Source: Burkholderiales bacterium (GTDB lineage Bacteria; Pseudomonadota; Gammaproteobacteria; Burkholderiales; SG8-39). Taken from it: a stretch of 64,000 bases of DNA. Under the pieces are notes generated by a model that saw nothing but the letters and a program-made list of their open reading frames with translations, was not told where the DNA came from and made no database searches. Position numbers and translations under genes: made by a program. The DNA lies in NCBI GenBank assembly GCA_036381055.1, contig DASVDO010000009.1, forward strand, positions 1,628-65,627, in the 5' to 3' direction. Position 1 is the first letter of the stretch; the number at the start of each line of letters is the position of its first letter. This document shows positions 8,689 through 51,610 of this stretch, in pieces.

Positions 8689-9219
8689 ATGAGCGTCTCG
8701 CGCAACGATCCATGTCCCTGCGGCAGCGGCCGGAAATACAAGAAATGCTGTGGCGCGGTACTCGCCCTGAAGCCCGAGCGGCGCGAGTGCGGCACCTGCA
8801 CCGCCTGCTGCGACGGCTGGGTGGTGGGCACGATCCGCGGCCACGAGATGAAGCCGGGCACGCCGTGCCACTTCCGCGGCGAGGGCTGCTGCACCATCTA
8901 CGCCGAGCGGCCGCAGGAACCGTGCCGCAGCTTCGTCTGCGGCTGGCTGGCGCCGGGCAGCCCGTTCCCGGAGGCGTTCCGCCCGGACCGGCTGGGGGTG
9001 ATGATCATCGGCACGCGCTGGCGCGGCCGGCCGGCGTACATCCTGCGCCACGCCGGGCGCGACCCGGACGAGCGGCTGCTAAGCTGGATGCGCGGCTTCA
9101 GCGTGCGCACCGGCGCGCCGTTCTTCTACGAGCAGGCGGGCGAGCGCTTCGGCTTCGGGCCGCGCGAGTTCCAGCACGAGATGCTGGCGCGGCTGCAATC
9201 GGGTGAGAGGCTATGGTGA
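8689..9219 (+). CDS. SEC-C motif protein fused to a YkgJ-type CxxCxxCC cysteine-cluster (Zn/Fe-chelating) domain
   Basis: N-terminal [16 protein letters not shown] (SEC-C). This is followed by [11 protein letters not shown] and [28 protein letters not shown]. Overlaps the next gene by 7 nt. Confidence 0.75.
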
Positions 9220-9788
9220 AGGACAAGACCGAATCGCACTACCACAGCAAGAAGGACCGCATCTTCGTGCGCGGCATCCAGGGCCAGTACAGCCTGAAGG
9301 ACGAGCTGAAGCGCCTGCGCTCGATGCCGCGCGTGCGCAAGGGCCGGGAGCTCAAGTTCGTCGACGGGCCGCAGGCCTACAGCCGGCACTACGTCGAGCC
9401 GAAGGACGGCATCTCGCAGATGTTCCACCTGCACCTGGAGGAGTACGCGCCGGGCGGCAGGAGCCAGAAGCACGGGCACGTCAACGAGGCCGCCTTCTAC
9501 ATTCTCGACGGCAAGGGCTACGAGATTCACGACGGCGTGCGCTACGACTGGCAGGCGGGCGACGTGGCGATCGTGCACAACAACTGCGTGCACCAGCACT
9601 TCAACGCGAGCCCCGACAAGCCGGCGCGCGCGCTGGTGATCAAGACCAAGCCGATGTACATGTTCATGAACATGCTCTTCCAGCAGCTCGTCGAGCCGCG
9701 GCCCACCGAGCCGGCGCCCGGCGCCGGGGGCTACCGCGTGCGCGAGGCGGAGAGCAACTACAACCATTCCGAGGAAGGAGACCGCTGA
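9213..9788 (+). CDS. Monocupin protein (paralog of 4876-5433)
   Basis: [20 protein letters not shown] and [27 protein letters not shown]. Confidence 0.85.
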
Positions 9789-10402
9789 TGGCCTGGGACG
9801 AATCGCGGGCGTGGAAGAAGGGCCGGAACCACCAGAAGCTCTACCAGGCGCTGCTCGACGACGCCGCCGGCGCGCCGGCGCGCAACGCCAAGCGCAGGAA
9901 GATCGTCCACCCCGAGGACATGCCCTGGGAAATGTCGCGCCAGGGGCTGCTCAAGCACCTGATCAACGAGGCCATGAACACGCGCATGGAGACGGTCGAC
10001 GCCTACATGCAGATCATCCCGCCGGGCAGCCGCTCCGGTAAGCACCGCCACCTCGCCGAGGAATGCCTGTACGTGCTGGAGGGCCGCGGCTACGACCTGC
10101 ACCAGGACTGCGACGTCGAGATCACCGACACCTACCACTGGAAGCCGCAGGACGAGATCAAGCGCTACGAATGGGAGGCGGGCGACGTGATCTACATCCC
10201 GCCCAACACCATCCACCAGCACTTCAACGCGAGCCCCGACAAGCCGGTGCGGCTGATCTCGGCGATCAATCGCATCTACAAGGCCTGCGGGCTGAACGAC
10301 CTCGAGCAGATCGAGGACGCGCCGGAGTACGACCCGAACGTGGTGCTCACCGCCGAGCTGGTCGAGCAGTACCTCAAGGCGAAGAGCAAGGTGCCGGCTT
10401 GA
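9788..10402 (+). CDS. Monocupin protein, second type
   Basis: GSRSGKHRHLAEECLYVLEG (HxH-x3-E) and [29 protein letters not shown] junction with the upstream cupin. Confidence 0.8.
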   Translation: MAWDESRAWKKGRNHQKLYQALLDDAAGAPARNAKRRKIVHPEDMPWEMSRQGLLKHLINEAMNTRMETVDAYMQIIPPGSRSGKHRHLAEECLYVLEGRGYDLHQDCDVEITDTYHWKPQDEIKRYEWEAGDVIYIPPNTIHQHFNASPDKPVRLISAINRIYKACGLNDLEQIEDAPEYDPNVVLTAELVEQYLKAKSKVPA

Positions 10403-24955: not shown

Positions 24956-25434
24956 AGCGCGTGCCGCTGACGCTGCAGGTAAACGGCGAGGAGCACACCA
25001 TCTCCTTCGCGCCCTACAAGACGCTGCTGGAAGTGCTGCGCGAGGACCTCGGCCTCACCGGCACCAAGCACGGCTGCGAGCTCGGCGAGTGCGGCGCCTG
25101 CGCGGTGCTGGTCGACGGCAAGCCGCAGCTCTCGTGCCTGACGCTCGCGCTCGAGTGCGAGGGCCGCTCCGTCGAGACCATCGAAGGCGTGGCGCGCGGC
25201 CCCGAGCTGCATCCGCTGCAGGCGGCGTTCGCGGAGTTCGGCGGCTCGCAGTGCGGCTACTGCACGCCCGGGGTGATCATGACCGCCAAGGCGCTGCTCG
25301 ACCGCAACCCCAGCCCGACGCGCCAGGAGATCAAGGAAGCGACCTCGGGCAACCTGTGCCGCTGCACCGGCTACCAGCAGATCGTCGACGCGATCGAGGA
25401 CGCGGCGGCGAAGCTGCGCGCGGAGGCGCGATGA
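24952..25434 (+). CDS. [2Fe-2S]x2 small subunit of a xanthine-dehydrogenase-family molybdenum hydroxylase (HcrC/CoxS-like)
   Basis: [11 protein letters not shown] (plant-type cluster) and CGYCTPG...CRCTGY (second cluster). 160 aa. Confidence 0.9.
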
Positions 25435-27866
25435 GCAAGCGCTTCGACATCGTAGGCAAGCCGCGCCGGCGCGTCGACGGCCGCGCCAAGGTGACCGGGC
25501 AGCTTCGCTACGCCGACGACCTCTCCATGCCGCGCATGCTGCACGCGAAGCTCTTGAGGTCTCCGCATCCCCACGCCGTGATCGAGCAGATCGATACCGA
25601 CAAGGCGAAGGCGCATCCCGGCGTGCACCTCGTCCTCACCGGCGCCGATTTCCCGGTGCCGTTCGGCATCATGCCGGTGTCGGTGGACGAATATCCGCTC
25701 GCGCGCGAGCGCGTGCGCTACGTCGGCGACCCGGTCGCGGCGGTGATCGCGCGCGACGAGCAGACCGCCGTGGCGGCGCTCGACCTGATCGAGGTGAAGT
25801 ACCGGGTGCTGAAGCCGATCGAGAGCGCCGAGCACGGGCTCGCCAATCCCGAGCCGAGGATCCACGACTACGGCGAGCAGGGCAACATCCATCGCAACCA
25901 GTCCTACGAGTTCGGCGACGTCGCCGAGGCGCTCGCGAAGTCCGATTACGTCTTCGAGGATCTCTTCTACTACGAAGGCAACACGCACCTGCCGATGGAG
26001 CAGCAGGCCTCGCTCGCCTTCGTCGACCCGGAAGGCAAGCTGCAGATCTGCTCCAGCACGCAGAACCCGCACTACCTGCACCGCCAGCTCGCGCGCGTGC
26101 TGCGCGTCCCCGAGTCGCAGATCCGCGTCGTCGCGACGCCCAACGGCGGCGGCTTCGGCGGCAAGTGCGACCCGGGCGGCCACGAGTTCGTGGTGTGCAA
26201 GGCGGCGCTCGTGCTCGGCCGGCCGGTGAAGATCGGCCTGACGCGCGAGGAGGTGTTCTACGTGCACCGCGGCCGCCACCCGGTGCTGATGAAGATGAAG
26301 ACCGGGGTGACGAAGGACGGCAAGCTCACCGGCATGCACCTGCAGACGCTGCTCGACGGCGGCGGCTACGGCTCGCACGGCCCGGCGAGCACCTTCTACA
26401 CCGGCGTGCTGACGCCGGTCACGTACCACTATCCGCGCTTCAAGTTCGAGGCCTGCCGCGTCTTCACCAACAAGCCGGCGTGCGGCCCGAAGCGCGGCCA
26501 CGGCACGCCGCAGCCGCGCTTCGGCCAGGAGGTGCAGCTCGACAAGATCGCCGAGAAGCTCGGCATCGACCCCGCCGAGCTGCGGCTGAAGAATCTGACC
26601 AGGGAAAATTCCTTGACCGCGAGCTGGCTGAAGATCGGCTCGAACGGCCTCGCCGAGTGCATCGAGAAGGTGACCGCGATGTCGGGCTGGAAGGAGCGCC
26701 GCGGCAAGCTCGGCAAGGGGCGCGGCCTCGGTCTCGCGTGCAGCACGTACATGTGCGGCGCCGGCGTCGCCATCTACTGGAACAAGATGCCGCACTCGGG
26801 CGTGCAGATCCTGCTCGACCGCTCGGGCGCGGTGATCGTCTACTGCGGCGCCACCGAGCTCGGCCAGGGCTCCGACGACGTGCTCGCCGCCCTGGTCGCC
26901 GAGGCGCTCGGCGTGGAGACCGGCGCGGTGCGCCTGGTGACCGGCGACACCGGCATCACGCCGGTGGACCTCGGCTCGTACTCGAGCCGCGTCACGATCA
27001 TGGCCGGCAACGCCGCGCTGCAGGCGGCGGAACGCCTGCGCGCCGCGATCGCGTCGGCGGTCGCCGAGACCCTGGGAACGCTGCCCGACCGCGTGGTGTT
27101 CTCGCAGGGCCGAGTATTCGCCGCGGACAATTCCGGGCCGGGCATGAGCTTCGTCGAGGCCGTGCAGGCGGCGGAAGCGCGGCTCGGCACGCTCTCGGCG
27201 GTCGGCTCCTACTCCCCGCCCAGGCCGCCCGGCAGGTACAAGGGCGCCGGGGTGGGACCGTCGCCCGCCTACAGCTTCACCGCCTGCGTGGTGCAGGCCG
27301 AGGTCGACGAGCGCACCGGCTGGATCCACGTGCCCAGGGTCTGGATCGTCCACGACATCGGCCGCGCGCTCAATCCGACGCTCGCGCGCGGGCAGGTGAT
27401 CGGCGGCGTGTACATGGGCCTGGGCGAGGCGCTGATGGAGGAGCAGTCGTTCCGCCGCCTGCCGGAGAAGCTCTCCGGCGCGCTGGTGCACCGCGCGCCC
27501 TCGATGCTCGATTACAAGAGCCTCACGTCGCTCGACATGCCGGAGGTCGAGGTGGCGTTCGTCGAGGAGCCGGATCCGAACTGCCCGTACGACGCCAAGG
27601 AAGTCGGCCAGGGGCCGCTCCTGCCGGTGATACCGGCGCTGGCGAACGCGGTGTACGACGCGGTGGGCGTGCGCATCGACGAAGTGCCGATCACGCCCGA
27701 CAAGGTGCTGAGGGCTCTGGAGAGGAAGGCGAAGGGAGAGCCGGCGCGCGTCGGCCCGGAGCGTTTCCCCGCGGTGCCGTACCCGAAAGCCATGTTCGTG
27801 CTGCCGCCCTGGGAAGGCGGCGACGGCAACGAAAGCAAGCGCGATGCTGCGGCTGCCGTGGTTTGA
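25431..27866 (+). CDS. Molybdopterin-binding large subunit of a molybdenum hydroxylase (4-hydroxybenzoyl-CoA reductase alpha-like)
   Basis: 811 aa with aldehyde oxidase/XDH hammerhead and MoCo-binding blocks (GGGFGGK, GQGSDDVLAALVAE, GSYSSRVT, KEVGQGPLLP). ATGA overlap with the small subunit. Confidence 0.85.
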   Translation: MSKRFDIVGKPRRRVDGRAKVTGQLRYADDLSMPRMLHAKLLRSPHPHAVIEQIDTDKAKAHPGVHLVLTGADFPVPFGIMPVSVDEYPLARERVRYVGDPVAAVIARDEQTAVAALDLIEVKYRVLKPIESAEHGLANPEPRIHDYGEQGNIHRNQSYEFGDVAEALAKSDYVFEDLFYYEGNTHLPMEQQASLAFVDPEGKLQICSSTQNPHYLHRQLARVLRVPESQIRVVATPNGGGFGGKCDPGGHEFVVCKAALVLGRPVKIGLTREEVFYVHRGRHPVLMKMKTGVTKDGKLTGMHLQTLLDGGGYGSHGPASTFYTGVLTPVTYHYPRFKFEACRVFTNKPACGPKRGHGTPQPRFGQEVQLDKIAEKLGIDPAELRLKNLTRENSLTASWLKIGSNGLAECIEKVTAMSGWKERRGKLGKGRGLGLACSTYMCGAGVAIYWNKMPHSGVQILLDRSGAVIVYCGATELGQGSDDVLAALVAEALGVETGAVRLVTGDTGITPVDLGSYSSRVTIMAGNAALQAAERLRAAIASAVAETLGTLPDRVVFSQGRVFAADNSGPGMSFVEAVQAAEARLGTLSAVGSYSPPRPPGRYKGAGVGPSPAYSFTACVVQAEVDERTGWIHVPRVWIVHDIGRALNPTLARGQVIGGVYMGLGEALMEEQSFRRLPEKLSGALVHRAPSMLDYKSLTSLDMPEVEVAFVEEPDPNCPYDAKEVGQGPLLPVIPALANAVYDAVGVRIDEVPITPDKVLRALERKAKGEPARVGPERFPAVPYPKAMFVLPPWEGGDGNESKRDAAAAVV

Positions 27867-28842
27867 CTACCGCGCGCCGCGCTCGCTCGCCGAGGCGGCG
27901 CGCATCCTCGCGGGCGAGGGGCCGGCGGCGATGCCGATCGCCGGCGGCACCGACCTGCTGCCCAACATGAAGCGCCGCCACCAGACGCCGAAAGTGCTGG
28001 TCTCGCTCGGCCGGATCGAGGAGCTCAGGCGCTCGAACGGCAGCTTCGGCGCCGCTCTGACGCTCGCCGAGGTGGCGCGGAGCGAGCGCGCGCCGGCGGC
28101 GCTGCGCCAGGCGGCGGCGCAGGTCGCGACGCCGCACCTGCGCAACATGGGCACGCTCGGCGGCAACCTGTGCCTCGACACGCGCTGCACCTATTACAAC
28201 CAGACCTACGAGTGGCGCAAGGCGATCGGCTTCTGCCTCAAGAAGGACGGCCAGACGTGCTGGGTGGCGACCGCGAGCAAGCGCTGCGTGGCGGTCTCTT
28301 CCAGCGACACCGCGCCGGCGCTCATCGCCCTGAACGCCTCGGTGAGGCTGGTGAGCGCGAGCGGCGAGCGCGAGCTGCCGGTGGAGGCGCTGTACCGGAA
28401 CGACGGCATCGACTACCTGGCGCGCCGCCCCGACGAGATTCTCGCCGAGGTGAAAGTGCCCCAGGGGTGGCGAAGCGCGTACTGGAAGCTGCGGCGCCGC
28501 GGCGCCTTCGACTTCCCGGTGCTCGGCGTCGCGGTGGCGGTGCGCTTCGACGGCGACGTCGTGCGCGAGGCGCGCATCGCGCTCGGCGCGGTCGCCTCCC
28601 GGCCGTTCCTGGTGGAGAAGGCGGGCGAGCTCCTGGTGGGTCAAAGGCTGACCGACGAGGCGATCCGGCAGGCCGCCGAGCGGGTGGCGAACCGCGCCAA
28701 GCCGATGGACAACACCGACATGGACCTGTACTGGCGCAAGGAAGTGGCCGACGACTTCGCCGCCTACGCGCTGCGCGAGGTGCGCGGCGACGACATGCGC
28801 GAAACCCGCCAGCGCATCAATCGGTTTACAGTAGAGCGTTGA
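27844..28842 (+). CDS. FAD-binding medium subunit carrying a Cys-rich insertion (HcrB-type, putative extra [4Fe-4S])
   Basis: FAD motif PIAGGTDLLP. Insertion GGNLCLDTRCTYYNQTYEWRKAIGFCLKKDGQTCWVATASKRCV with Cys115-x15-Cys131-x7-Cys139-x8-Cys148. Confidence 0.8.
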   Translation: MLRLPWFDYRAPRSLAEAARILAGEGPAAMPIAGGTDLLPNMKRRHQTPKVLVSLGRIEELRRSNGSFGAALTLAEVARSERAPAALRQAAAQVATPHLRNMGTLGGNLCLDTRCTYYNQTYEWRKAIGFCLKKDGQTCWVATASKRCVAVSSSDTAPALIALNASVRLVSASGERELPVEALYRNDGIDYLARRPDEILAEVKVPQGWRSAYWKLRRRGAFDFPVLGVAVAVRFDGDVVREARIALGAVASRPFLVEKAGELLVGQRLTDEAIRQAAERVANRAKPMDNTDMDLYWRKEVADDFAAYALREVRGDDMRETRQRINRFTVER

Positions 28843-34197: not shown

Positions 34198-34257
34198 TTT
34201 CGCGATTGAAATTTCCTTCTCCTCGATTACAGTAGGCGCTTCAACGAGGAGAGCGGA

Positions 34258-34722
34258 ATGATCAAGCTGGTCGTGAATGGGCGCTCGCGCCAGGTGGACG
34301 TCGAGCCCGAGATGCCGCTGCTGTGGGTGCTGCGCGACGTGCTCGACGTCAAGGGTCCGAAGTTCGGCTGCGGCATCGCGCAATGCGGCGCCTGCACCGT
34401 GCACGTCAACGACGAGCCGGTGCGCTCGTGCTCCTTTCCGGTGTCGGCGGCGGCGGGCAAGCGCGTCGTCACCCTCGAGGGGCTGGCGAAGCGCGGCAAG
34501 CTGCACCCGGTGCAGCAGGCGTGGATCGACCACCAGGTGCCGCAGTGCGGCTACTGCCAGGGCGGGCAGATCATGGCCGCGGTGGCGCTGCTGCGCAGGA
34601 TCCCCAACCCGACCGACCAGGACATCGACGAGGCGATGACCAACATCTGCCGCTGCGGCACCTATGCGCGCATCCGGCCGGCGATCCATGCCGCCGCCAA
34701 GGCGGCGAAGGCGAAGGCCTAG
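34258..34722 (+). CDS. [2Fe-2S]-binding small subunit, isoquinoline 1-oxidoreductase alpha (IorA)-like
   Basis: [11 protein letters not shown] and CGYCQGG...CRCGTY cluster motifs. 154 aa. GAGGAGA RBS. Confidence 0.9.
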
Positions 34723-34731
34723 GAGGCTGCC

Positions 34732-36867
34732 ATGACGACGCGACGCGAGTTCCTGAAGATTTCCGCGACGGTCGGCGGCGGCCTGGCCGTCGGCTTCCAC
34801 GTGCCGTTCGCCGCGGCGCAGAAGCAGGTGCTGTCGCCCGAGATCAACGCCTGGGTGCTGGTGCGCCCGGACGACCGGGTGATCATCCGCTACGCGCGCT
34901 CCGAGATGGGCCAGGGCAGCATGACCTCGGCGGCGCAGCTCGTCGCCGAGGAGCTGGGCTGCGACTGGAAGAAGGTGCGCGTGGAGTACGTCGACACCAA
35001 CGCGCAGGTGCGCCGCAAGCGCATCTGGGGCGACATGGCCTCGGTGGGCAGCCGCACCATCCGCAACTCGCAGCAATACCTGCGCAAGGCGGGCGCGCAG
35101 GCGCGCGAGATGCTGGTGGCGGCCGCCGCGCAGCAGTGGAAGGTCGACCCGGCGCGCTGCAAGGTCGAGAACGGCGTGATCAGCGGCCCCGGCAAGCGCA
35201 GGACCACCTTCGGCGGCGTGGCCGCGGCGGCGGCGAAGCTCGCGCCGCCCGAGGACGTGAAGCTCAAGGATCCGAAGGACTGGACGATCGCCGGCAAGTC
35301 GATCGCGCGCGTCGACATCCCGGACATCGTGCGCGGGCGCATCCGCTACGGCATCGACGCGCAGCTCCCGGGCATGCGGTACGCCGCGGTGGCCCAGTGC
35401 CCGGTGTTCGGCGGGACGGTGAAATCGGTGGACGAATCGAAGATCGCCGGGCGCCGCGGCGTCGTCAAGGTGCTGAAGTTCGACGACTACGTCGCGGTGG
35501 TGGCCGACAACTGGTGGCGCGCCAAGGAGGCGCTCAAGGCGCTGCCGATCGCGTGGGACGTCGGCGCGAACGGCTCGGTGACGAGCGAGTCGATCAAGGC
35601 GTTCCTGCGCGCCGGGCTGGACGCGCAGAGCGACGTGGTGGTCGCCAAGCAGTCGGGCGACGTCGACGCGGCGTTCAAGGACGCGAAAGTGATCGAGGCG
35701 GAGTACTACACGCCCTTCCTCGCGCACTGCACGATGGAGCCGCAGGGCTGCACCGCGCTCATCAAGGGCGGGCGGGTCGACATCTGGACCTCGACCCAGA
35801 ACGCCGAGGCCTCGCACGCCGCGGCGGCGGCGACCGCCGGGGTGCCGCTGGAGAACGTCTACGTGCACCGCTCGCAGCTCGGCGGCGGCTTCGGCCGGCG
35901 CGGCGGTGCGCAGGACTTCGTGCGCCAGGGCGTGCAGATCGCGAAAGCGATGGAAGGCACGCCGGTGAAGACCCTCTGGACCCGCGAGGAGGACATGCAG
36001 CACGACTTCTACCGCCCGGTGAGCCTGGTGCGCTTCCGCGCCGCGCTCGGGCCGGACGGCAGGCCGGCGGCATGGCATTCGCGGGTCGCCGCGCCGTCGA
36101 TCATCGCCACGCTGCTCAAGCTGCCGCTCAGGCAGGGCTTCGATCCGCAGGCCATGGCGGCGATCGCCGACCAGCCCTACGAGATTCCCAACGTGCGCAT
36201 GGAGTACGCGCAGCGCAACCCGCACGTGCCGGTCGGCTTCTGGCGCACGGTGGGCCATTCGCAGAACCCGTACATGCGCGAGTCGTTCCTCGACGAGCTG
36301 GCGCACGCCGCGGGCAAGGACCCGTACGAGTACCGGCTGGCGCTGCTGCCCGAGGACTCGCGCGAGCGCAGGATCCTGCAGGCGACCGCCCGGCACGCCG
36401 GCTGGGGCAAGGCGCTGCCCAGGGGCGTGCACCGCGGCGTCGCGGTCACCGAGGCCTACGGCAGCTACACCGCGGCGGTGTGCGAGCTCTCGGTGAACGA
36501 GAAGAACCAGGTAAGCATCCGGCGGCTGGTGCTCGGCATCGATCCCGGCCACGTGGTCAACCCGGACAACATCCTCGCGCAGATGCAGGGCAGCGCGGTG
36601 TACATGCTGAGCGCGCTCTTCTGGGGCGACATCACCATCAAGGACGGGCGCGTCGAGCAGTCGAACTTCCACGACTACCGGGTGCTGCGGCTCGCCGAGA
36701 TGCCCAAGGTCGAGATGGTGCTCGCGCCGAGCGGCGGCTTCTGGGGCGGCATCGGCGAGCCCGGCCAGGCGTCGATCGCGCCCGCGGTGTGCAACGCGAT
36801 CTTCGAGGCGACCGGCCGGCGGGTGCGCTCGCTGCCGCTCGCCAAGGAGGGCTTCGAGCTGGCGTGA
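34732..36867 (+). CDS. Molybdopterin-dependent oxidoreductase large subunit, IorB-like, Tat-exported
   Basis: Twin-arginine signal MTTRREFLKISATVGGGLAVGF...AAAQ. 711 aa with IorB-type architecture (no separate FAD subunit). Confidence 0.85.
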   Translation: MTTRREFLKISATVGGGLAVGFHVPFAAAQKQVLSPEINAWVLVRPDDRVIIRYARSEMGQGSMTSAAQLVAEELGCDWKKVRVEYVDTNAQVRRKRIWGDMASVGSRTIRNSQQYLRKAGAQAREMLVAAAAQQWKVDPARCKVENGVISGPGKRRTTFGGVAAAAAKLAPPEDVKLKDPKDWTIAGKSIARVDIPDIVRGRIRYGIDAQLPGMRYAAVAQCPVFGGTVKSVDESKIAGRRGVVKVLKFDDYVAVVADNWWRAKEALKALPIAWDVGANGSVTSESIKAFLRAGLDAQSDVVVAKQSGDVDAAFKDAKVIEAEYYTPFLAHCTMEPQGCTALIKGGRVDIWTSTQNAEASHAAAAATAGVPLENVYVHRSQLGGGFGRRGGAQDFVRQGVQIAKAMEGTPVKTLWTREEDMQHDFYRPVSLVRFRAALGPDGRPAAWHSRVAAPSIIATLLKLPLRQGFDPQAMAAIADQPYEIPNVRMEYAQRNPHVPVGFWRTVGHSQNPYMRESFLDELAHAAGKDPYEYRLALLPEDSRERRILQATARHAGWGKALPRGVHRGVAVTEAYGSYTAAVCELSVNEKNQVSIRRLVLGIDPGHVVNPDNILAQMQGSAVYMLSALFWGDITIKDGRVEQSNFHDYRVLRLAEMPKVEMVLAPSGGFWGGIGEPGQASIAPAVCNAIFEATGRRVRSLPLAKEGFELA

Positions 36868-37244
36868 AGCGGCGCGGCTTTCTCGCGTTTCTCGGGTTTC
36901 TCCCGTTCGCCGCGCGCTCGGCGCCCCGGAAGGGAAGGGTCAAGCTCGAGCTCCCCGTGCTCGCCGACAACGGCAACTCGGTGGCGATGAAGGTCAGCGT
37001 CGAGAGCCCGATGACCGAGGCCGATCACGTGAAGCTGATCCGCCTGATCTCCGAGCGCAACCCCGAGCGGCAGATGGCGGTGTTCCACCTCGGGCCGCGC
37101 GCCGGCGCGGCCGAGATCAGCTCGCGCGTGCGGCTCGCCGGCAGCCAGACCGTCACCGCGATCGCCGAGATGTCCGACGGCTCGCAGTGGATGGATACGG
37201 CGCGCGTGCAGGTCACGCTGTCGGCCTGCGTGGACGAGACCTGA
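36864..37244 (+). CDS. SoxY-like carrier protein with a variant C-terminal arm (…VTLSACVDET instead of …GGCGG)
   Basis: Tat-like leader KRRGFLAFLGFL. Co-linear with SoxY (LPVLADNGNSV..V.V, NPERQMAVFHLGP, RVRLAGSQTVTAIAEMSDGS, VQVTLSAC). GTGA overlap with the iorB-like gene. Confidence 0.8.
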   Translation: MKRRGFLAFLGFLPFAARSAPRKGRVKLELPVLADNGNSVAMKVSVESPMTEADHVKLIRLISERNPERQMAVFHLGPRAGAAEISSRVRLAGSQTVTAIAEMSDGSQWMDTARVQVTLSACVDET

Positions 37245-37561
37245 TGGCGGCGCGCATCCGCCTGCCGAAGCCGGCGAAGCGCGGCGAGGTGATCCGCGTG
37301 CGCCTGCTGATCCAGCACCCGATGGAGACCGGCTATCGGCTCGACGCGAGCGGCCGCAAGGTGCCGAAGAACGCGATCCGCTCGCTCGTCTGCCGCTACA
37401 GCGGCGTCGAGGTGTTCCGCGCCGAGCTGTCGCCCGGCATCGCCGCCAACCCGTTCCTCGAGTTCCCGACGATCGCCACCGAGAGCGGCGAGCTCGAGTT
37501 CACCTGGGTCGACGACGCCGGCGTGCAGGGACGCGCCGTCGAGCCGATCACGGTCGCGTAA
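37244..37561 (+). CDS. SoxZ-like protein
   Basis: Co-linear with SoxZ: RVRLLIQHPMETGYRLDASGRKVP, NPFLEF, GELEFTWVDDAG. TGATG junction with the SoxY-like gene. Confidence 0.85.
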   Translation: MAARIRLPKPAKRGEVIRVRLLIQHPMETGYRLDASGRKVPKNAIRSLVCRYSGVEVFRAELSPGIAANPFLEFPTIATESGELEFTWVDDAGVQGRAVEPITVA

Positions 37562-39493: not shown

Positions 39494-40325
39494 GCTCCGT
39501 CAGCATGCCGGCCAGGCCGAGCGTCACGGCGGCCATGCGCTCGTAGTCCAGCTTCTCCGGCGTATCGCTCGCGCGATGATAGTGCGGGTAGCGGTTGTAG
39601 GCGGTGTCGGTCACCATCAGCGCCGGGTAGCCGTGGCGGCGGAACGACCAGTGGTCCGAGCGCGTGATGCCCGGCACGAAGGCGGGCGCGGCGAGCGACT
39701 CGCACGGGAAATCGCTGTGGCGGCGGAACAGGCGGTGCGCCCGCTTCACCAGGCGGCGCGCGCCGAAGTCGCCGACGAAGGCGATGAAGTTCGCCCGGTC
39801 CGGGTAGAACCAGCCGAGCAGCGGCGGATAGCGCTGGCTGCCCGGCTCGTCGCTGTAGCAGCCGAGCATCTCGAGCGAGAACATCGCCGCGATGCGCTCG
39901 CCCCGCTCGCGGGCGCGCCGCGCGTAGACGAAGCTGCCCATCTCCTCGCCGTGCGAGTAGGGCAGCTCCTCGTTGGCGAAGGCGACGAAGCGGATCTCCT
40001 GCTGGCGCAGGATGCCCGCCAGCTCGATCAGCGCGGCGACGCCCGAGGCGTTGTCGTCGGCGCCGGGCGAGCCGGGTACGGTGTCGTAGTGCGCGCCGAC
40101 CACGATCGCGCCTTCGCCCGCCTCGATGTTGTGCACCGTGCGGCCGGCGCTCGGGTAGCCCTGGCGGCGCGCGCGCGGGCCGAGCGCGGCCTCGATGTAG
40201 CGCGCCGGCGTCTCGAGGTCGGTGTTGCGCTCGCGCGCGGCGAGCGCCTCGACGTGGGCGCGCAGCCGCCGCGCCAGCGCGCCGCGCAGCTCGGCGTCAG
40301 GCGAGGGCTTGGTCGAGCTCGGCAA
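39468..40325 (-). CDS. M28-family zinc metallopeptidase
   Basis: GAHYDTVPGSPGADDNASGVAALIE (Zn ligands), NEE, and a DHWSF region. TTG start (uncertain). No obvious signal peptide. Confidence 0.7.
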   Translation of the reverse strand: MPSSTKPSPDAELRGALARRLRAHVEALAARERNTDLETPARYIEAALGPRARRQGYPSAGRTVHNIEAGEGAIVVGAHYDTVPGSPGADDNASGVAALIELAGILRQQEIRFVAFANEELPYSHGEEMGSFVYARRARERGERIAAMFSLEMLGCYSDEPGSQRYPPLLGWFYPDRANFIAFVGDFGARRLVKRAHRLFRRHSDFPCESLAAPAFVPGITRSDHWSFRRHGYPALMVTDTAYNRYPHYHRASDTPEKLDYERMAAVTLGLAGMLTELASEHQRW

Positions 40326-41454
40326 TCAGGTCCTCGACATCCTCGATGCCCACCGAGAGCCGGATCAGCCCGTCGCCGATGCCCAGGCCGGCGCGCACGT
40401 CCTCGGGCAGCGACGCGTGCGTCATGATCGCCGGATGCTCGACCAGGCTCTCGACGCCGCCCAGGCTCTCGGCGAGCGTGAACAGCCGGCAGCGCTCGAG
40501 GAAGCGCCGCGCCGCGGGCAGGCCGCCTTTCAGCACCGCGCTCACCATGCCGCCGTAGCGGCGGTTCATCTGCTGCGCCGCGAGGAGATGCTGCGGGTGG
40601 CTGGCGAGGCCGGGATAGATCACGCGCTCGACGTTGCGATGCGTCTGCAGCCACGCCGCGACGTGCATCGCGTTGCCGCAGTGGCGCTCCATGCGCAGCG
40701 CGAGCGTCTTGATGCCGCGCAGGGTGAGGAAGGCGTCGAACGGGCTCGGCACCGCACCCACGGCATTCTGCAGGAAGCGCAATTGCTCGCTCAACGGGCC
40801 CTCTTCCCTGACGACGACCGCGCCGCCGATCACGTCCGAGTGGCCGTTCAGGTACTTGGTGGTCGAATGCACGACCAGGTCGAAGCCGTGCTCGAGCGGC
40901 CGCTGGATCCAGGGCGAGGCGAAGGTGTTGTCGCAGACGCAAACGAGGTTTTTGCGCTTCGCGATCCCGGCGATCGCGGCGAGGTCGACGATCTTGAGCA
41001 GCGGGTTGGTCGGCGTCTCGACCCACACCATGCGCGTCTCGGGCCGGATCGCCCGCTCGAGGTTCCGCGGGTCGGTGAGGTCGACGAAGCTCGCCTTCAG
41101 GCCGGCCGAGCGCTTGCGCACCCGCTCGAGGATCCGGTAGGTGCCGCCGTACAGGTCGTGCATGCACACGACGTGCGCGCCGCTCTCCAGCGTCTCGAGC
41201 ACCGTGGCGATCGCCGCCATGCCGGAAGCGAAGGCGAACGCGCGCGCGCCGCCCTCCAGCGCCGCGAGGCAGGCTTCCAGCGCGTCGCGCGTCGGGTTGC
41301 GCGTGCGCGCGTAGTCGTAGCCGCGGTGCTCGCCCGGGCTCGACTGCGCGTAGGTCGAGCTGGCGTAGATCGGCGTCATCACCGCGCCGGTGCGCGGATC
41401 GGGCGCCTGTCCGGCGTGCACCGCCCGGGTGTCGAACTTCATCGGTCTTGCCAT
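40297..41454 (-). CDS. PLP-dependent Cys/Met-metabolism enzyme (cystathionine gamma-lyase / gamma-synthase family)
   Basis: FDTRAVHAGQ N-terminus and HSTTKYLNGHSD (PLP-Lys). ~385 aa. Alternative start ATG 41442 in an ATGA overlap with the upstream stop. Confidence 0.9.
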   Translation of the reverse strand: MARPMKFDTRAVHAGQAPDPRTGAVMTPIYASSTYAQSSPGEHRGYDYARTRNPTRDALEACLAALEGGARAFAFASGMAAIATVLETLESGAHVVCMHDLYGGTYRILERVRKRSAGLKASFVDLTDPRNLERAIRPETRMVWVETPTNPLLKIVDLAAIAGIAKRKNLVCVCDNTFASPWIQRPLEHGFDLVVHSTTKYLNGHSDVIGGAVVVREEGPLSEQLRFLQNAVGAVPSPFDAFLTLRGIKTLALRMERHCGNAMHVAAWLQTHRNVERVIYPGLASHPQHLLAAQQMNRRYGGMVSAVLKGGLPAARRFLERCRLFTLAESLGGVESLVEHPAIMTHASLPEDVRAGLGIGDGLIRLSVGIEDVEDLIAELDQALA

Positions 41455-42803
41455 CGGCGTCTCAGCCAGTTGAGAAGGTCGATGCGCGTGATCAGGCCGA
41501 GGAACTCGTCGCCGTCGACCACGATCGCCACCATGCCGCGCTTGAAGATGTCCATCAGCTCGTCGAGCGGGGCGCCCGGCGGCACGGTGACCAGCTGGCG
41601 CGTCATCGCCTCGGTCACCGGCTCGGCGAAATGCTCCGGATTGTCGTACACCTCGGCGAGAATGTCCTCCTCGTCGACGATGCCGACGATGCGGCCCTGC
41701 GCGAGCACCGGGAGCTGCGACACGTCGTAGAGTTTCATGCGCTGGTAGGCGGCGAGCACCGGCTCGGTCGCGTCCACCGTCGCCACCGAGCGCTCGGCGT
41801 AGGGGCGGCTGATCAGGTCGCGCAGGTCGCCCCGGCGCGGCCGCTCGAGCAGCCCCTGGTCCTGCATCCAGAAGTCGTTGTAGACCTTGGAAAGATACTT
41901 GTTGCCGCTGTCGCAGGCGAAGGTCACCACGCGCTTCGCCGCGCCGCTTTCCCGGCAGTAGCGCAGCGCCGCGGCGAGCAGCGTGCCGGTGGAGGTGCCG
42001 GCGAGGATGCCTTCGGCGCGCAGCAGCTCCCGGCAGGCGAGCAGCGACTCGCGGTCCGGGATGCTGTAGGCCTTCTTCACGCGCGACAGGTCGCAGACCG
42101 GCGGCACGAAGTCCTCGCCGATGCCTTCGACGAGCCAGCTCCCGACCTGCTCGGGCTTGCGTCCGGTGCGCACCAGCGGCGCGAGCACCGAGCCCTCGGG
42201 ATCGGCGAGCACCATCTCGCAATCCGGCGCGACGCGCGCGAAGAAGCGCGACAGGCCGGTCAGCGTGCCGCCGGTGCCGACGCCGCACACCACCGCGTCG
42301 ACGCGGCCCTGCATCTGCTCCCAGATCTCGGGCCCGGTGGTGCGCTCGTGCGCGAGCGGGTTCGCCTCGTTGGCGAACTGGTTCACGTAGAAGGCGCCCG
42401 GCGTGGCGGCGGCGATCGCCGCCGCGCGGTCCTGGTAGTAGTCGGGGTGGCCCTTGGTGACGTCGGAGCGCGTGAGCAGCACCTCGGCGCCGAGCGCCTT
42501 CAGGTGGAAGATCTTCTCCTGGCTCATCTTGTCCGGGACGACGATCAGCACGCGATAGCCCTTCTGCCCGGCGACCAGCGCGAGGCCGAGCCCGGTGTTG
42601 CCGGCGGTCGCTTCCACCAGCAGCCCGCCCGGCGCGAGGCGCCCGTCGCGCTCGGCGGCCTCGATCATCGCGAGCGCGATGCGGTCCTTGATCGAGCCGC
42701 CGGGGTTCTGGCTTTCCAGCTTCAGGAACAGGCGCGAGCGGCCGGTGTCGAGCCGCGTGACCTCGACGAGCGGCGTGCGGCCGACGAGGTCGAGGATGCT
42801 CAG
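41439..42803 (-). CDS. Cystathionine beta-synthase-type PLP enzyme with a C-terminal CBS-domain pair; apparently a non-canonical (CTG) start
   Basis: GRTPLV...ESQNPGGSIKDR (PLP-Lys) and TAGNTGLGLA, then two CBS domains. No ATG/GTG/TTG lies upstream of the PLP lysine in frame. CTG 42803-42801 overlaps the upstream stop (CTGA). Confidence 0.75.
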   Translation of the reverse strand: MSILDLVGRTPLVEVTRLDTGRSRLFLKLESQNPGGSIKDRIALAMIEAAERDGRLAPGGLLVEATAGNTGLGLALVAGQKGYRVLIVVPDKMSQEKIFHLKALGAEVLLTRSDVTKGHPDYYQDRAAAIAAATPGAFYVNQFANEANPLAHERTTGPEIWEQMQGRVDAVVCGVGTGGTLTGLSRFFARVAPDCEMVLADPEGSVLAPLVRTGRKPEQVGSWLVEGIGEDFVPPVCDLSRVKKAYSIPDRESLLACRELLRAEGILAGTSTGTLLAAALRYCRESGAAKRVVTFACDSGNKYLSKVYNDFWMQDQGLLERPRRGDLRDLISRPYAERSVATVDATEPVLAAYQRMKLYDVSQLPVLAQGRIVGIVDEEDILAEVYDNPEHFAEPVTEAMTRQLVTVPPGAPLDELMDIFKRGMVAIVVDGDEFLGLITRIDLLNWLRRRWQDR

Positions 42804-44491
42804 CCGGCCGCCGCCTTGCGCTTCAGCGCCGCCTCTCGGATGTCGGTCAGGGTCACCCGGGTGGTGATCGCCTCGCGGTCCATGCGCAGGTCGATCACCG
42901 AGAGCTTGCCCGAGCGCGTCGCGGCTTCCAGCGCCGGAACGAAGTCCTCGGTGCGCTCCACGCGGGCGCCGAACCCGCCGTGCGCCTCGGCGATGCGCAC
43001 GTAGTCGGGGTTCACCAGGTCCGTGCCCGAGACCCGGCCGGGATAGCTGATCTCCTGCCAGGCGCGGATCGAGCCGAGCATGCCGTTGTTGAAGACGATG
43101 ATGACCGGCGTCGCGCCGCAGGCGGCCGCGGTGGCGATCTCGTTGCCGGTCATGCCGAAGCCGCCGTCGCCCACCAGGCCGACCGCCATGCGCCCGGGCT
43201 GGACGATCTTCGCCATCACCGCGGCGGGCACGCTGTAGCCCATCGCTCCTGAGACCGGCGCGAGAAAGCGGCGGTTCCCGCCGAGGCGCAGGAAGCGCTG
43301 CACCCAGCCGGTGTAGTGGCCGGCGTCGGAGGTCAGGATCGCGTCGGCCGGCAGGCGCCGGTCGAGCTCGGCCATGCAGCGGCCGAGGTCGACCGCGCCC
43401 TTGGGCGACTTCGACGCGTCGAGGTTCTGCTCGTACTGCCGGCGCGCCTCGGCCACCTGGGCGGCGCGCTTCGCCGCCGCGGCGCCGGGCTTCTGCGCGT
43501 TCGCCGCCTCGACGAACAGCTCCAGGTCGGACTCGATCGCGAGCAACGGGTGGAACACGCGGCCGAAGTCGTGCGCGTAAGGCAGCACGTGGATCAGCTT
43601 CTGGCGCGGCACCGGCGCGTCGAGCAGCGTGTAGCCCTGCGTGGCGTGCTCGCCGAGCCGCGTGCCGACCGCGAGTACCACGTCGGATTCCTTGACGCGC
43701 TTCACCAGCTCCGGCGCCGCCGCCGGCCCCATCTCGCCGGCGAAGTTCGGATGGTCGTGGTCGAAGGCGTCCAGGCGGCGGAAGCCGCAGCACACCGGCA
43801 GGCCGTTCGCCGCGGCGAAATCCTGCAGCGCCTTGCGCGCCGCCGGGCGCCATACGCCGCCGACGTAGAGGATCGGCCGCTCCGCCTTGTCGAGGATCGC
43901 CTGCATCTCGCGCAGGCGCTGCGGATCGGGCGCGCGCCGGCGCGGCTCGAGCACCGGCAGGTCGCCGGCGCTCGAGCGCTCGGCGAGCATGTCCTCGGGC
44001 ATGACCAGCGCGACCGGGCCGGGGCGCCCCTCCCGCGCCACGCGGAAGGCCTGCGCCATGTAGTAGGGCAGGTCCGCGGTGCGCTCGATCTGCACCGCCC
44101 ACTTGGTCATCGGCTCGAGCATGCGCACCAGGTCGAGCTCCTGGAACGAGCCGCGCCCGGCGAAGTTGCGCCGGATCTGGCCGGCGATCACCACCATCGG
44201 CGTGCCGTCCTGGTGCGCGGTGTGGATGGCGATCGAGGCGTTGCACGCGCCCGGGCTGCGCGCGACGAGGCAGATGCCCGGCTTGCCGGTCAGCTTGGCG
44301 TAGGACTCCGCCATGTAGGCGGCGCCGCCTTCCTGGCGGGCGGCGACCAGGCGGATCTCGCGCGAGGCGTCGACCAGCGCGTCGAGGATGTCCAGGTAGC
44401 TCTCGCCGGGCACGCAGAACACGTGCTCGACGCCATGGTTGCGGAAAGCATCGACGACGATCCTGCCGCCGCTGCGTTCGGGACGGTTCAC
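42800..44491 (-). CDS. Thiamine-pyrophosphate-dependent enzyme (acetolactate-synthase-like)
   Basis: VFCVPGESYLDILDAL...QEGGAAYMAESYAK (Pyr domain) and GDGGFGMTGNEIATAA...VFNNGMLG (PP motif). GTG start with a GGAGGAG RBS. Confidence 0.85.
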   Translation of the reverse strand: MNRPERSGGRIVVDAFRNHGVEHVFCVPGESYLDILDALVDASREIRLVAARQEGGAAYMAESYAKLTGKPGICLVARSPGACNASIAIHTAHQDGTPMVVIAGQIRRNFAGRGSFQELDLVRMLEPMTKWAVQIERTADLPYYMAQAFRVAREGRPGPVALVMPEDMLAERSSAGDLPVLEPRRRAPDPQRLREMQAILDKAERPILYVGGVWRPAARKALQDFAAANGLPVCCGFRRLDAFDHDHPNFAGEMGPAAAPELVKRVKESDVVLAVGTRLGEHATQGYTLLDAPVPRQKLIHVLPYAHDFGRVFHPLLAIESDLELFVEAANAQKPGAAAAKRAAQVAEARRQYEQNLDASKSPKGAVDLGRCMAELDRRLPADAILTSDAGHYTGWVQRFLRLGGNRRFLAPVSGAMGYSVPAAVMAKIVQPGRMAVGLVGDGGFGMTGNEIATAAACGATPVIIVFNNGMLGSIRAWQEISYPGRVSGTDLVNPDYVRIAEAHGGFGARVERTEDFVPALEAATRSGKLSVIDLRMDREAITTRVTLTDIREAALKRKAAAG

Positions 44492-49824: not shown

Positions 49825-50505
49825 TCATGGACGTACCGCGGGGGCTTCGACCGGCAGGCCGCGGCCGCGCCAGGCGAGATAGGCCGCGAGGTCGGCGAGC
49901 AGGGGATCGCCGTACGGCGGCATCTCGGCGTGGATGCCGGAGAAGCAGGCGCGCAGCCGCCGCTCGAGCGACCCTAGCGTCTGCCAGCGCAGGCGGTAGG
50001 TCGGATAGCCGTTCGGCTGCCCTTCGCTGATCGTCTCGCCGCCGATGCGCTTGCCGGCGTTCGCGTCGTGGCAGTTGGCGCAGGCGAGGTTCATCTGCCC
50101 GCGGCGGCGGAAGTATTCGCTCCTGCCGCGCTCGACCTCCGCGGCGGACAGGTGCCGGCCGATCGGCAGGCCGCGCGACTGGTAGGCGACGTAGGCGGAG
50201 AGCGAAAGCAGCTCGTCGGACTCCCAGGCGAAGGGCTCGCGATGGCGCAGCATCGCGTCCAGCGTGATCACCTTGCCCGAGGCGACGCGTGGATAGCGCG
50301 GGGCGACGCCTTTCATCGACTCGTGGCAGGAGCGGCAGCGCTCGGCGAAGAGCTTCTCGCCGGCGTCGACCCACAGCATGCCCGGGTTCTCGACGTCGCT
50401 TTGCTGCATGCGGCGGATCTCCGGGCTCGCATACTCGAGCCCCGAGCGCTGTGCTGCTGCGCCGGCGCAGACGAGGAGGAGGAGGAGCGAAACGAGCGGC
50501 CTCAC
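49825..50505 (-). CDS. soxA: Sulfur-oxidation c-type cytochrome SoxA (dihaem type)
   Basis: Signal peptide; CRSCH and CANCH haem motifs; GYPTYRLRWQTLGSLERRLRACF (SoxA Cys-ligand region). GTGA overlap with soxX. Confidence 0.8.
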   Translation of the reverse strand: MRPLVSLLLLLVCAGAAAQRSGLEYASPEIRRMQQSDVENPGMLWVDAGEKLFAERCRSCHESMKGVAPRYPRVASGKVITLDAMLRHREPFAWESDELLSLSAYVAYQSRGLPIGRHLSAAEVERGRSEYFRRRGQMNLACANCHDANAGKRIGGETISEGQPNGYPTYRLRWQTLGSLERRLRACFSGIHAEMPPYGDPLLADLAAYLAWRGRGLPVEAPAVRP

Positions 50506-50861
50506 TTCAGCGTGAGGAGAAAGGCCACGACGTCGTCGATCTGCGCGTCGCTGAGAAGCGGCTTGCCGCGGTATTGCTCCGCCACCTGGTGCAGGCCCTC
50601 GGTGCGCCCGTAGGGCGGCATGACCGTGTCCGGGTTGAAGCGCGAGGCGTCGACGATGCGCGCCTCCATTTCCGCGGCAGAGAGCCGGCTCGCCACGCCG
50701 GCGAGCGAAGGGCCGAGGTCGCCCGCGGGCCCGGCGGCGCCCGGGATGGCATGGCACAGGATGCAGCCGGCCTCGGCGCGCGCCGTTGCGATCGCCCTGC
50801 CTCGCTCCGCGTCGCCGGCCCAGGCGGCGACGGGCAGGAGGAGGAGGGCGAGCAGCTTCAT
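50502..50861 (-). CDS. soxX: Sulfur-oxidation c-type cytochrome SoxX
   Basis: Signal peptide; [10 protein letters not shown]...[13 protein letters not shown]...[10 protein letters not shown] is the pattern typical of SoxX. 119 aa. Confidence 0.8.
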
Positions 50862-51610
50862 CCCCGGCCGATGAACGGCATCTTGGTGGCCATGATGGTC
50901 ATGAACTGCACGTTCGCGTCGAGCGGCAGGTTGGCCATGTAGAGCACCGCGGTGCCGACGTGCTTCACGTCCATGCGCGGCTCGACCATGGTCTGGCCGT
51001 TCGCCTGCAGCACGCCCTTGGTCATGCGCTCGGTCATCTCGGTGGCGGCGTTGCCGATGTCGATCTGGCCGCAGGCGATGTCGTACTTGCGGCAGTCGAG
51101 CGAGATCGACTTGGTGAGGCCGGTCACCGCGTGCTTGGTCGCGGTGTAGGCGACGGTGTTCGGCCGGGGCGCGTGCGCCGAGATCGAGCCGTTGTTGATG
51201 ATGCGGCCGCCGCGCGGCTCCTGCGCCTTCATGATCCTGATCGCCTCCTGCGAGCACATGAACATCGCCGTGAGGTTGAGGTCGACCACCGCGCGCCAGG
51301 TCTCGAGCGGCAGGTCCTCGAGCGGCACCGCGGGCGCGCCCATGCCGGCGTTGTTGAACAGCACGTCGAGCCGGCCCCATTCGCTCTTCACCTTGGCGAA
51401 GACCTCTTTCACGAACTCGGGCCGGGTGATGTCGCCGGGGAGCACCAGCGTGCGCTCCTTCGCGCCCGCGGCGGCGGCGGTCTTCTCCAGCTCTTCCTTG
51501 CGCCGCGCGACCAGCGCGACGTGATAGCCGTCGCCGGCGAGGGCGAGCGCGGCGGCGCGGCCGATGCCGGCGCTCGCGCCGGTGACCAGGGCGACTCTCT
51601 TCTGCGTCAT
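50858..51610 (-). CDS. Short-chain dehydrogenase/reductase (SDR)
   Basis: [14 protein letters not shown], and YTATKHAV (YxxxK). Stop overlaps the soxX ATG (ATGA). Confidence 0.9.

Follow-up and report, generated by a model that had tools for sequence, protein, structure and literature searches.

The window analysed here is a stretch of 64,000 nucleotides from a Burkholderiales bacterium (assembly GCA_036381055.1, contig DASVDO010000009.1, positions 1,628 to 65,627 of the forward strand). It contains an operon in which the genes of an IorAB-type molybdenum (Mo) enzyme are joined to the genes of a variant SoxYZ carrier. Analysis of the open reading frames (ORFs) and profile searches placed iorA, iorB, soxY' and soxZ' head to tail on the + strand between 34258 and 37561 (Table 1), where soxY' and soxZ' denote the soxY-like and soxZ-like genes of the ior operon. 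The stop codon of iorB and the start codon of soxY' overlap by four bases (GTGA), and the TGA of soxY' and the ATG of soxZ' share one base (TGATG). An earlier note on this DNA had reported the four genes and both overlaps at the same coordinates, and all of them were confirmed on the + strand. The overlaps between iorB, soxY' and soxZ' are consistent with co-translation of the four products. Because the next gene downstream of soxZ', which encodes an AI-2E-family transporter, is convergent, the operon consists of exactly four genes. The 94-bp gap between iorA and a divergent major facilitator superfamily (MFS) transporter gene holds a candidate promoter, and one promoter-like site was found upstream of iorA compared with 0.1 expected from shuffled sequence. 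The G+C content around the operon is 70%.

Table 1. Features of the ior-soxY'Z' operon and of the separate soxXA unit in the window
Feature	Position	Strand	Description	Basis
Candidate promoter	34206..34233	+	sigma-70-like, TTGAAA / 16 nt spacer / TACAGT	consensus match only
iorA	34258..34722	+	small subunit, two [2Fe-2S] clusters, 154 aa	Fer2_2 103 bits, Fer2 30 bits
iorB	34732..36867	+	molybdopterin-binding large subunit, IorB type, 711 aa	MoCoBD_1 134 bits, MoCoBD_2 109 bits
soxY'	36864..37244	+	carrier, 126 aa, GTG start, KRRGFL leader, arm VTLSACVDET	Pfam SoxY
soxZ'	37244..37561	+	carrier partner, 105 aa	Pfam SoxZ, SoxZ_true
soxA	49825..50505	-	two CxxCH motifs and conserved Cys in LRACFSG	TIGR04484 156 bits, cutoff 110
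soxX	50502..50861	-	mono-haem cytochrome c, CILCH motif	TIGR04485 73.7 bits, cutoff 61
Short-chain dehydrogenase/reductase (SDR) gene	~50858-51610	-	upstream of soxX	overlap with soxX

Both carrier proteins are recognised by the Sox family models. SoxY' scored 100.4 bits against Pfam SoxY (PF13501, cutoff 28.4) and SoxZ' scored 89.9 bits against Pfam SoxZ (PF08770, cutoff 25). SoxZ' also passed the NCBIfam model SoxZ_true (TIGR04490, 84.7 bits, cutoff 76) and matched 2OX5_Z with an E value of 4e-23. Under the model for true SoxY with a GGCGG arm (TIGR04488), SoxY' reached 86.7 bits, and the cutoff is 125. Its best NCBIfam model was TIGR04487, 'SoxY-related AACIE arm protein' (154.2 bits, cutoff 172), which it matched at model positions 38-146 only. 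Full-length relatives exceed this cutoff, with 208 bits for L049 and 178 bits for L031 (L001-L161 denote loci compared with the window). In SoxY' of the window and its closest relatives (126-134 aa), approximately 20-35 residues are missing from the stretch that leads from the signal peptide to the first strand; other members have 139-160 aa. SoxY' falls below the TIGR04487 cutoff because of this short N-terminus, which leaves about 37 N-terminal model positions unmatched. The arm pattern of the TIGR04487 type (small-small-Cys-aliphatic-acidic) is matched by SACVD of SoxY', although the window arm is SACVD instead of AACIE. In a neighbour-joining tree of SoxY-like proteins rooted on Paracoccus SoxY, SoxY' groups with AACIE, AACVE and AACTE proteins, and the Mesorhizobium and Bradyrhizobium orthologs that NCBI names after this family are in the same clade. 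The earlier note had mentioned a catalogued SoxY-related subfamily with an AACIE-like arm; such a subfamily does exist, and it is TIGR04487.

The only cysteine of SoxY', Cys122, is invariant in the aligned sequences and lies on the C-terminal arm. Alignment with 2OX5_Y placed it on the carrier cysteine of Paracoccus pantotrophus SoxY (...VKVTIGGC in 2OX5_Y and ...VQVTLSAC in SoxY'), which bears out the earlier description of a SoxY-like protein with a SACVDET arm and the cysteine at the aligned position. The AlphaFold model of SoxY' is an all-beta sandwich with a mean predicted local distance difference test (pLDDT) score of 77, in which the last strand ends at residue 118 and the tail, residues 119-126, is unstructured. 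The best PDB fold matches of the model were the SoxY chains of 2OX5, 2OXG and 4UWQ. In each of the 120 best database homologs, TLSAC[VLIM]D is followed by 1-5 terminal residues. The SACVDET arm is therefore characteristic of the family and does not stem from a sequencing error. None of the 116 ior-linked carriers has lost the arm cysteine, although its flanks vary (SACVD, AACIE, AACTE and TGCG).

The first two genes of the operon encode an enzyme of the xanthine oxidase family. Both four-cysteine [2Fe-2S] motifs are visible in the IorA translation, and the best NCBIfam matches of IorA were gamma or small subunits of xanthine-oxidase-family enzymes, all under the equivalog cutoffs. No signal peptide was found on IorA, which would be exported piggy-backed on IorB. 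The N-terminus of IorB, MTTRREFLK, is a twin-arginine signal (RR-x-F-L-K), and a Pfam search found the MoCoBD_1 and MoCoBD_2 domains in the permuted order of IorB. The closest solved relative of IorB is 8GY3_C, which is the large subunit of a membrane aldehyde dehydrogenase from Gluconobacter (E value 1e-72, full length). RR-x-F, Gln61 (MGQG) and Glu676 (GEP) are invariant in 11 ior-linked IorB orthologs. Since these residues include the catalytic Glu (GEP) and the Gln that binds Mo=O (MGQG), IorB is predicted from its sequence to be catalytically competent. No NCBIfam equivalog model for IorAB was reached, so the substrate of IorAB is not assignable by homology.

IorAB of the window is similar to isoquinoline 1-oxidoreductase (IorAB) and to the three-subunit membrane aldehyde dehydrogenases of Gluconobacter (8GY3). 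It shares with them the small [2Fe-2S] subunit with its two motifs, the permuted Mo subunit with a twin-arginine translocation (Tat) signal and the conserved catalytic Glu and Gln, and it likewise has no flavin adenine dinucleotide (FAD) subunit, as no FAD_binding_5 gene was found in the operon. Unlike those enzymes, it has no cytochrome c gene adjoining iorB; the third and fourth genes are soxY' and soxZ', and the neighbours of the ior genes are sulfur-oxidation genes, with nothing pointing to an aldehyde or N-heterocycle substrate. Members of the IorB clade that are not linked to SoxY are bare two-gene units, and no CxxCH protein was found adjoining them. Of the IorB cysteines considered as possible exchange partners of the arm, Cys77, Cys143 and Cys223 are conserved in the SoxY-linked and unlinked groups alike. 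Tandem iorB duplicates, paralogs with 50-59% identity, were observed upstream of sox genes in L012 (297-5138), L017 (2906-7752), L072 (2908-7275) and L127.

The pairing of iorAB with the variant carrier was surveyed from both sides in a collection with one genome per species. The SoxY-first survey (L001-L080) gave 60 assessable loci with at least 5.5 kb of upstream sequence. The IorB-first survey (L081-L160) was an arbitrary sample of loci with at least 48% identity to the window IorB, and 55 of them were assessable with at least 5 kb of downstream sequence. In the SoxY-first survey, iorA-iorB was found upstream on the same strand in 51 of 53 loci whose arm is xAC[V/I/L/M][D/E], in none of the six loci with a SAC[Y/W]D arm and not in the single locus with a SACGE arm. 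The association between arm class and presence of iorAB was significant (Fisher exact p = 6e-7). The earlier note had asked whether a variant-arm SoxY always neighbours iorAB and had regarded a variant carrier found mostly without iorAB as evidence against its proposal. The aliphatic arms are nearly always linked, so this test did not refute the proposal, and the answer is negative for SAC[Y/W]D. The SAC[Y/W]D carriers were never found with iorAB, and therefore the pairing is specific to certain arm types. In the other direction, a SoxY-like gene was found downstream of iorB in 44 of 55 loci among the matches listed, and 39 of these 44, again among the matches listed, also carry soxX and/or soxA. 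These linked loci include many Bradyrhizobium (arm AACTEE), Methylobacterium, Microvirga, Bosea, Limnohabitans and Duganella. The pairing spans Alpha-, Beta- and some Gammaproteobacteria and more than 100 species-level genomes of bacteria from soil and fresh water.

In the SoxY-like tree, the ior-linked carriers form one large clade and an early-branching short-arm group, with the unlinked SAC[Y/W]D group between them. The early-branching group (L094 at 9185-9960, L095, L099, L102 and L159) has the order iorA-iorB-soxY-soxZ and arms of the type xGCG(T), SSCG or SACGD, and neither soxX nor soxA was found near these five loci. The two exceptions to the linkage are L027 and L032 (Methylobacterium crusticola), with arms AACID and AACVE; they have soxX-Y-Z-A, with a gene for flavocytochrome c sulfide dehydrogenase (FCSD) in L027, and no iorAB within 10 kb. 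In these genomes iorAB might be located elsewhere. An aromatic-arm subgroup (SACYD/SACWD) of betaproteobacterial SoxY was also observed, comprising L019, L020, L021, L023, L026, L028, L029, L031, L039 and L056. At these loci a soxX-Y-Z-A set stands by itself, surrounded by housekeeping genes (aroE, mtgA and 2-oxoacid:ferredoxin oxidoreductase), and no iorAB, SoxB or other partner enzyme was found within 10 kb of them.

The reciprocal surveys and the Fisher test rule out chance adjacency of iorAB and soxY'. The explanation that a frameshift or assembly error turned a normal GGCGG terminus into the odd one, and that the adjacency is accidental, can also be rejected outright. Independent assemblies share the TLSAC[VLIM]D terminus, the linkage occurs in more than 100 species-level genomes, and the gene order of the window, judged from Pfam labels, is repeated on an independent metagenome contig. 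This artefact had been raised as a test in the earlier note, and the test was negative. The variant SoxYZ and the IorAB-type enzyme are a real, conserved unit.

All-against-all clustering of ORFs from 160 loci was used to search for further partners. Besides a two-component system, the gene families conserved with the pair are SoxX, SoxA, FCSD and a small cytochrome c, and the SoxX and SoxA proteins of the relatives score above the cutoffs of the NCBI SoxX and SoxA models. TctC/Bug and MFS genes are lineage-specific neighbours, and an SDR gene lies beside soxX. Most relatives have soxX and soxA inside the same operon, so that the four-gene system described by the earlier note holds for the window and not for most of its relatives. 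The betaproteobacterial sisters have the order iorA-iorB-soxX-soxY'-soxZ'-soxA. In Alphaproteobacteria, for example Mesorhizobium temperatum (L049), the order is iorA-iorB-cytochrome c-FCSD flavoprotein-soxX-soxY'-soxZ'-soxA. The FCSD assignment is based on Pfam FCSD_central (170 bits) and FCSD-flav_bind (87 bits), and FCSD, present in 65 loci, outnumbers every other extra gene. The two-component system was found in approximately 25 alphaproteobacterial loci, where it is often divergent. Neither a SoxB-like nor a SoxCD-like family was among the conserved genes of the 160 neighbourhoods, and the Mo enzyme is therefore the sole candidate processing enzyme there. XdhC/PaoD-like and rhodanese genes were likewise not among the conserved genes, and no catabolic, transporter, lyase or aldehyde-related genes are conserved beside the pair in this set.

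In the window itself, soxX and soxA lie 12.3 kb from the ior operon in an SDR-soxX-soxA unit. SDR and soxX overlap by ATGA, and the GTG start of soxA overlaps the stop codon of soxX (GTGA). The earlier statement that a cytochrome c is absent therefore holds for the operon and not for the window, because SoxX and SoxA are encoded at 49825-50861 on the - strand. The window SoxXA is closest to that of the SDR-soxX-soxY''-soxZ''-soxA cluster of L005 (18092-20377), whose carrier arm is AACTDGG. The SoxY''Z'' pair has been lost in the window, in L001, in L003 and in one metagenome contig, and SoxY'Z' is the only SoxYZ in the 64-kb window. It is plausible that the window SoxXA loads SoxY'.

The presence of these cytochromes allows another explanation of the gene clusters. 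IorAB might be an ordinary aldehyde or N-heterocycle dehydrogenase that gives electrons to SoxX/SoxA or to the small cytochrome c, and SoxXA-SoxY'Z', with or without FCSD, might separately handle sulfide or thiosulfate, the two being united by shared cytochromes or regulation. Enzymes of the IorAB type normally depend on cytochrome c as acceptor, and the three-subunit enzyme that is the closest solved relative includes a cytochrome c. The unlinked members of the IorB clade are also without a neighbouring cytochrome c gene, and the SAC[Y/W]D-type soxXYZA clusters occur alone, so a SoxXAYZ set can stand by itself. However, in the window lineage and the loci L094, L095, L099, L102 and L159, iorAB is coupled only to soxYZ, and the operon contains no cytochrome gene. 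Therefore, the invariant partner of IorAB is the carrier and not the cytochromes. In addition, iorB is joined directly to soxY' by overlapping stop and start codons, and we know of no complete reaction cycle in the established Sox model for a standalone SoxXAYZ without SoxB. On balance, we regard a composite operon of this kind as unlikely.

The unit was compared with the canonical Sox system of Paracoccus pantotrophus and relatives (SoxXA, SoxYZ, SoxB and SoxCD). Both systems have a carrier of the SoxY/SoxZ heterodimer type with a single cysteine on a C-terminal arm, and both the sequence and the predicted fold of SoxY' match 2OX5. Other shared features are a Tat-type leader on SoxY, SoxX and SoxA homologs above the NCBIfam cutoffs, a Mo enzyme in the cluster and, in the alphaproteobacterial ior versions, an FCSD/SoxF-like flavoprotein. 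The ior-linked arm, (S/A)AC(V/I/L/M/T)(D/E), differs from GGCGG, and SoxY' of the window fails the true-SoxY model. Unlike canonical Sox clusters, the ior-soxY' clusters in the 160 neighbourhoods have no linked SoxB or SoxCD, and their Mo enzyme is of the xanthine oxidase family, with a predicted molybdopterin cytosine dinucleotide (MCD) cofactor and two [2Fe-2S] clusters, and not of the sulfite oxidase family.

We favour, tentatively and at somewhat less than an even chance, the explanation that the unit is a periplasmic, Sox-derived module for carrier-dependent sulfur oxidation, in which the IorAB-type Mo enzyme replaces SoxCD and/or SoxB. This is suggested because a Tat-exported Mo enzyme and a Tat-exported carrier are coupled to each other and their conserved companions are concerned only with sulfur oxidation. 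In such a module, IorB, carrying IorA, and SoxY', carrying SoxZ', would be exported by the Tat pathway. SoxXA would load sulfur onto the single arm cysteine of SoxY' through oxidative S-S coupling, a task shared in Alphaproteobacteria with the co-encoded FCSD. The arm would then reach the Mo centre of IorB, where the sulfane sulfur that it holds would be oxygenated in two-electron steps, possibly giving a labile S-sulfinate or sulfonate that could leave as sulfite or sulfate without SoxB. The c-type cytochromes would receive the electrons by way of the two [2Fe-2S] clusters of IorA. We infer from the gene linkage that the carrier is the substrate of the enzyme, and the bound species and the products are proposed on the same grounds. 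We speculate that two oxygenations would produce an S-sulfinate that is released as sulfite, which would account for the absence of SoxB.

Several points weigh against sulfur oxidation on the carrier by IorAB. The chemistry of the xanthine oxidase family is the hydroxylation of sp2 C-H, and we know of no member that acts on sulfur or on a protein-tethered substrate. The active-site signature of IorB is that of an ordinary hydroxylase, and comparison with 10 unlinked sequences gave only two weakly discriminating columns (K182 and E642) between SoxY-linked and unlinked IorBs. Approximately 20% of the IorB-clade loci, among the matches listed, have no SoxY-like neighbour. The window SoxXA is orthologous to the SDR-linked cluster of L005 and not to the in-operon SoxXA of the relatives, and the loading step is unclear in the window operon and in some other iorAB-soxYZ pairs without in-operon SoxXA. 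Regeneration of the carrier without SoxB is speculative.

The carrier might instead serve the upkeep of the enzyme. Xanthine-oxidase-family enzymes need a cyanolysable Mo=S group, which is easily lost, and there is no cysteine desulfurase or XdhC system in the periplasm. A persulfide on SoxY'Z', derived from sulfide via FCSD or from thiosulfate via SoxXA, could install or restore the Mo=S of exported IorB, and IorAB would then act on some aldehyde or heterocycle unrelated to the carrier. In the 160 neighbourhoods, conserved neighbours of iorAB include no XdhC/PaoD-like gene, which fits this explanation, and such operons commonly end with genes for maturation factors. A precedent at the database level is the quinoprotein-associated SoxYZ-like carrier (TIGR04557), which is also a SoxYZ-type carrier genetically tied to a non-Sox periplasmic dehydrogenase. 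SoxY' and SoxZ' scored 59.7 and 43.7 bits against this model (cutoff 140). The TIGR04557 carrier is a fused SoxY-SoxZ whose partners are pyrroloquinoline quinone (PQQ) enzymes, rhodanese and a SoxH-like hydrolase, whereas SoxY' and SoxZ' of the window are separate. A SoxYZ-like carrier encoded next to periplasmic quinoprotein dehydrogenases has been discussed as a 'relay' for enzyme upkeep (PMC12997753). However, an apparatus made up of two cytochromes, one flavocytochrome and a carrier of two proteins is heavy for the repair of a single enzyme, and PaoABC and the membrane aldehyde dehydrogenase 8GY3, which are also periplasmic members of the family, do without such a relay. An independent catabolic role of IorAB would be expected to leave substrate-related genes around iorAB, and none are conserved there. 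Moreover, a thiosulfonate adduct made by SoxXA is not an obvious sulfane donor without SoxB. We therefore consider a repair relay quite unlikely.

A third possibility is that the carrier holds an organic cargo. The arm cysteine might tether a thiol-bearing heterocycle or a small thiol as a mixed disulfide formed by SoxXA, or an aldehyde as a thiohemiacetal, and IorAB would carry out its usual C-H hydroxylation. IorB would then stay within the chemistry of its family, as expected from its conserved catalytic Glu and Gln, and the oxidative S-S bond formation by SoxXA could in principle accept other thiolates. To our knowledge there is no precedent for an organic substrate tethered to a SoxY-type arm. 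The most frequent extra gene of the clusters is FCSD, a dehydrogenase of inorganic sulfide, and organic-substrate transporters, lyases and regulators are not conserved in the 160 neighbourhoods. Divergent SoxY proteins have been speculated to serve organosulfur or carbon metabolism (PMC11237559). Experimental work was found for Bradyrhizobium diazoefficiens only; there, thiosulfate oxidation needs soxY1, and the second soxY is dispensable (PMC5748708, citing Masuda 2010). This difference from canonical Sox fits a distinct role for the paralog and so counts for the favoured sulfur-oxidation module as well as for an organic cargo. The ior-linked carriers of Bradyrhizobium are labelled 'AACIE arm protein' by NCBI, and soxY2 of B. 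diazoefficiens is probably the ior-linked gene, judging from L153 and other Bradyrhizobium loci. Taking both sides together, we find an organic cargo improbable.

For periplasmic inorganic chemistry bound to a carrier protein, the Sox pathway is the textbook example, and its enzyme set (SoxXA, SoxB and SoxCD) has so far been treated as essentially complete. The carrier family described here is already catalogued as TIGR04487 without an assigned function. Surveys mention 'paralogous' sox genes outside the sox clusters without explaining them (PMC13500833), and a survey of the SoxY family filtered out sequences without a GGC motif (PMC11237559). Full-text searches of an incomplete literature collection found no publication that links IorAB-type enzymes to SoxYZ. 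Our data tie a large class of SoxY paralogs, in more than 100 species-representative genomes, to a Mo enzyme from a different family. A Sox-type carrier system with such a partner points to an undescribed branch of carrier-based sulfur oxidation.

If the enzyme acts on the carrier, the chemistry of the xanthine oxidase family would extend to sulfur and to protein-bound substrates, there would be a route of sulfide or sulfane oxidation without SoxB and SoxCD, and a function would emerge for the second sox locus in rhizobia that matter to agriculture. With more reserve, as a possibility that falls distinctly short of even, we propose that IorAB uses sulfur tethered to SoxY', which would make it the first sulfur-oxidising, carrier-dependent member of its family. 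In that case Sox would further have a branch independent of SoxB and SoxCD and widely distributed among Alpha- and Betaproteobacteria from soil and fresh water, Bradyrhizobium and Mesorhizobium among them. A periplasmic relay for the repair of Mo=S would likewise be new. The question is open to direct testing in tractable hosts, for example B. diazoefficiens and Mesorhizobium.

Other genes of the window were also observed. A second, unrelated xanthine-oxidase-family enzyme of the CoxSLM type, with small Fe-S, large Mo and FAD subunits, is encoded at 24967-28842 on the + strand, and CoxSLM-type genes are syntenic with the ior operon in L001, L005, L010, L011 and L161. Between the ior-soxY'Z' operon and soxXA, at approximately 40297-44246 on the - strand, are genes for cystathionine gamma-lyase-like and cystathionine beta-synthase-like proteins, which are possible H2S producers. 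The same placement of the cystathionine genes is seen in L001, L005 and L011 and may be lineage synteny only. Among the relatives, a TctC/Bug-family periplasmic binding protein gene of approximately 1.1 kb is inserted between soxY' and soxZ' in L016 (10403-11428; same contig as L082) and in L158. TctC/Bug homologs are also found divergent beside iorA in L001, L005, L009-L011 and L161, and Bug genes are very numerous in Burkholderiales.

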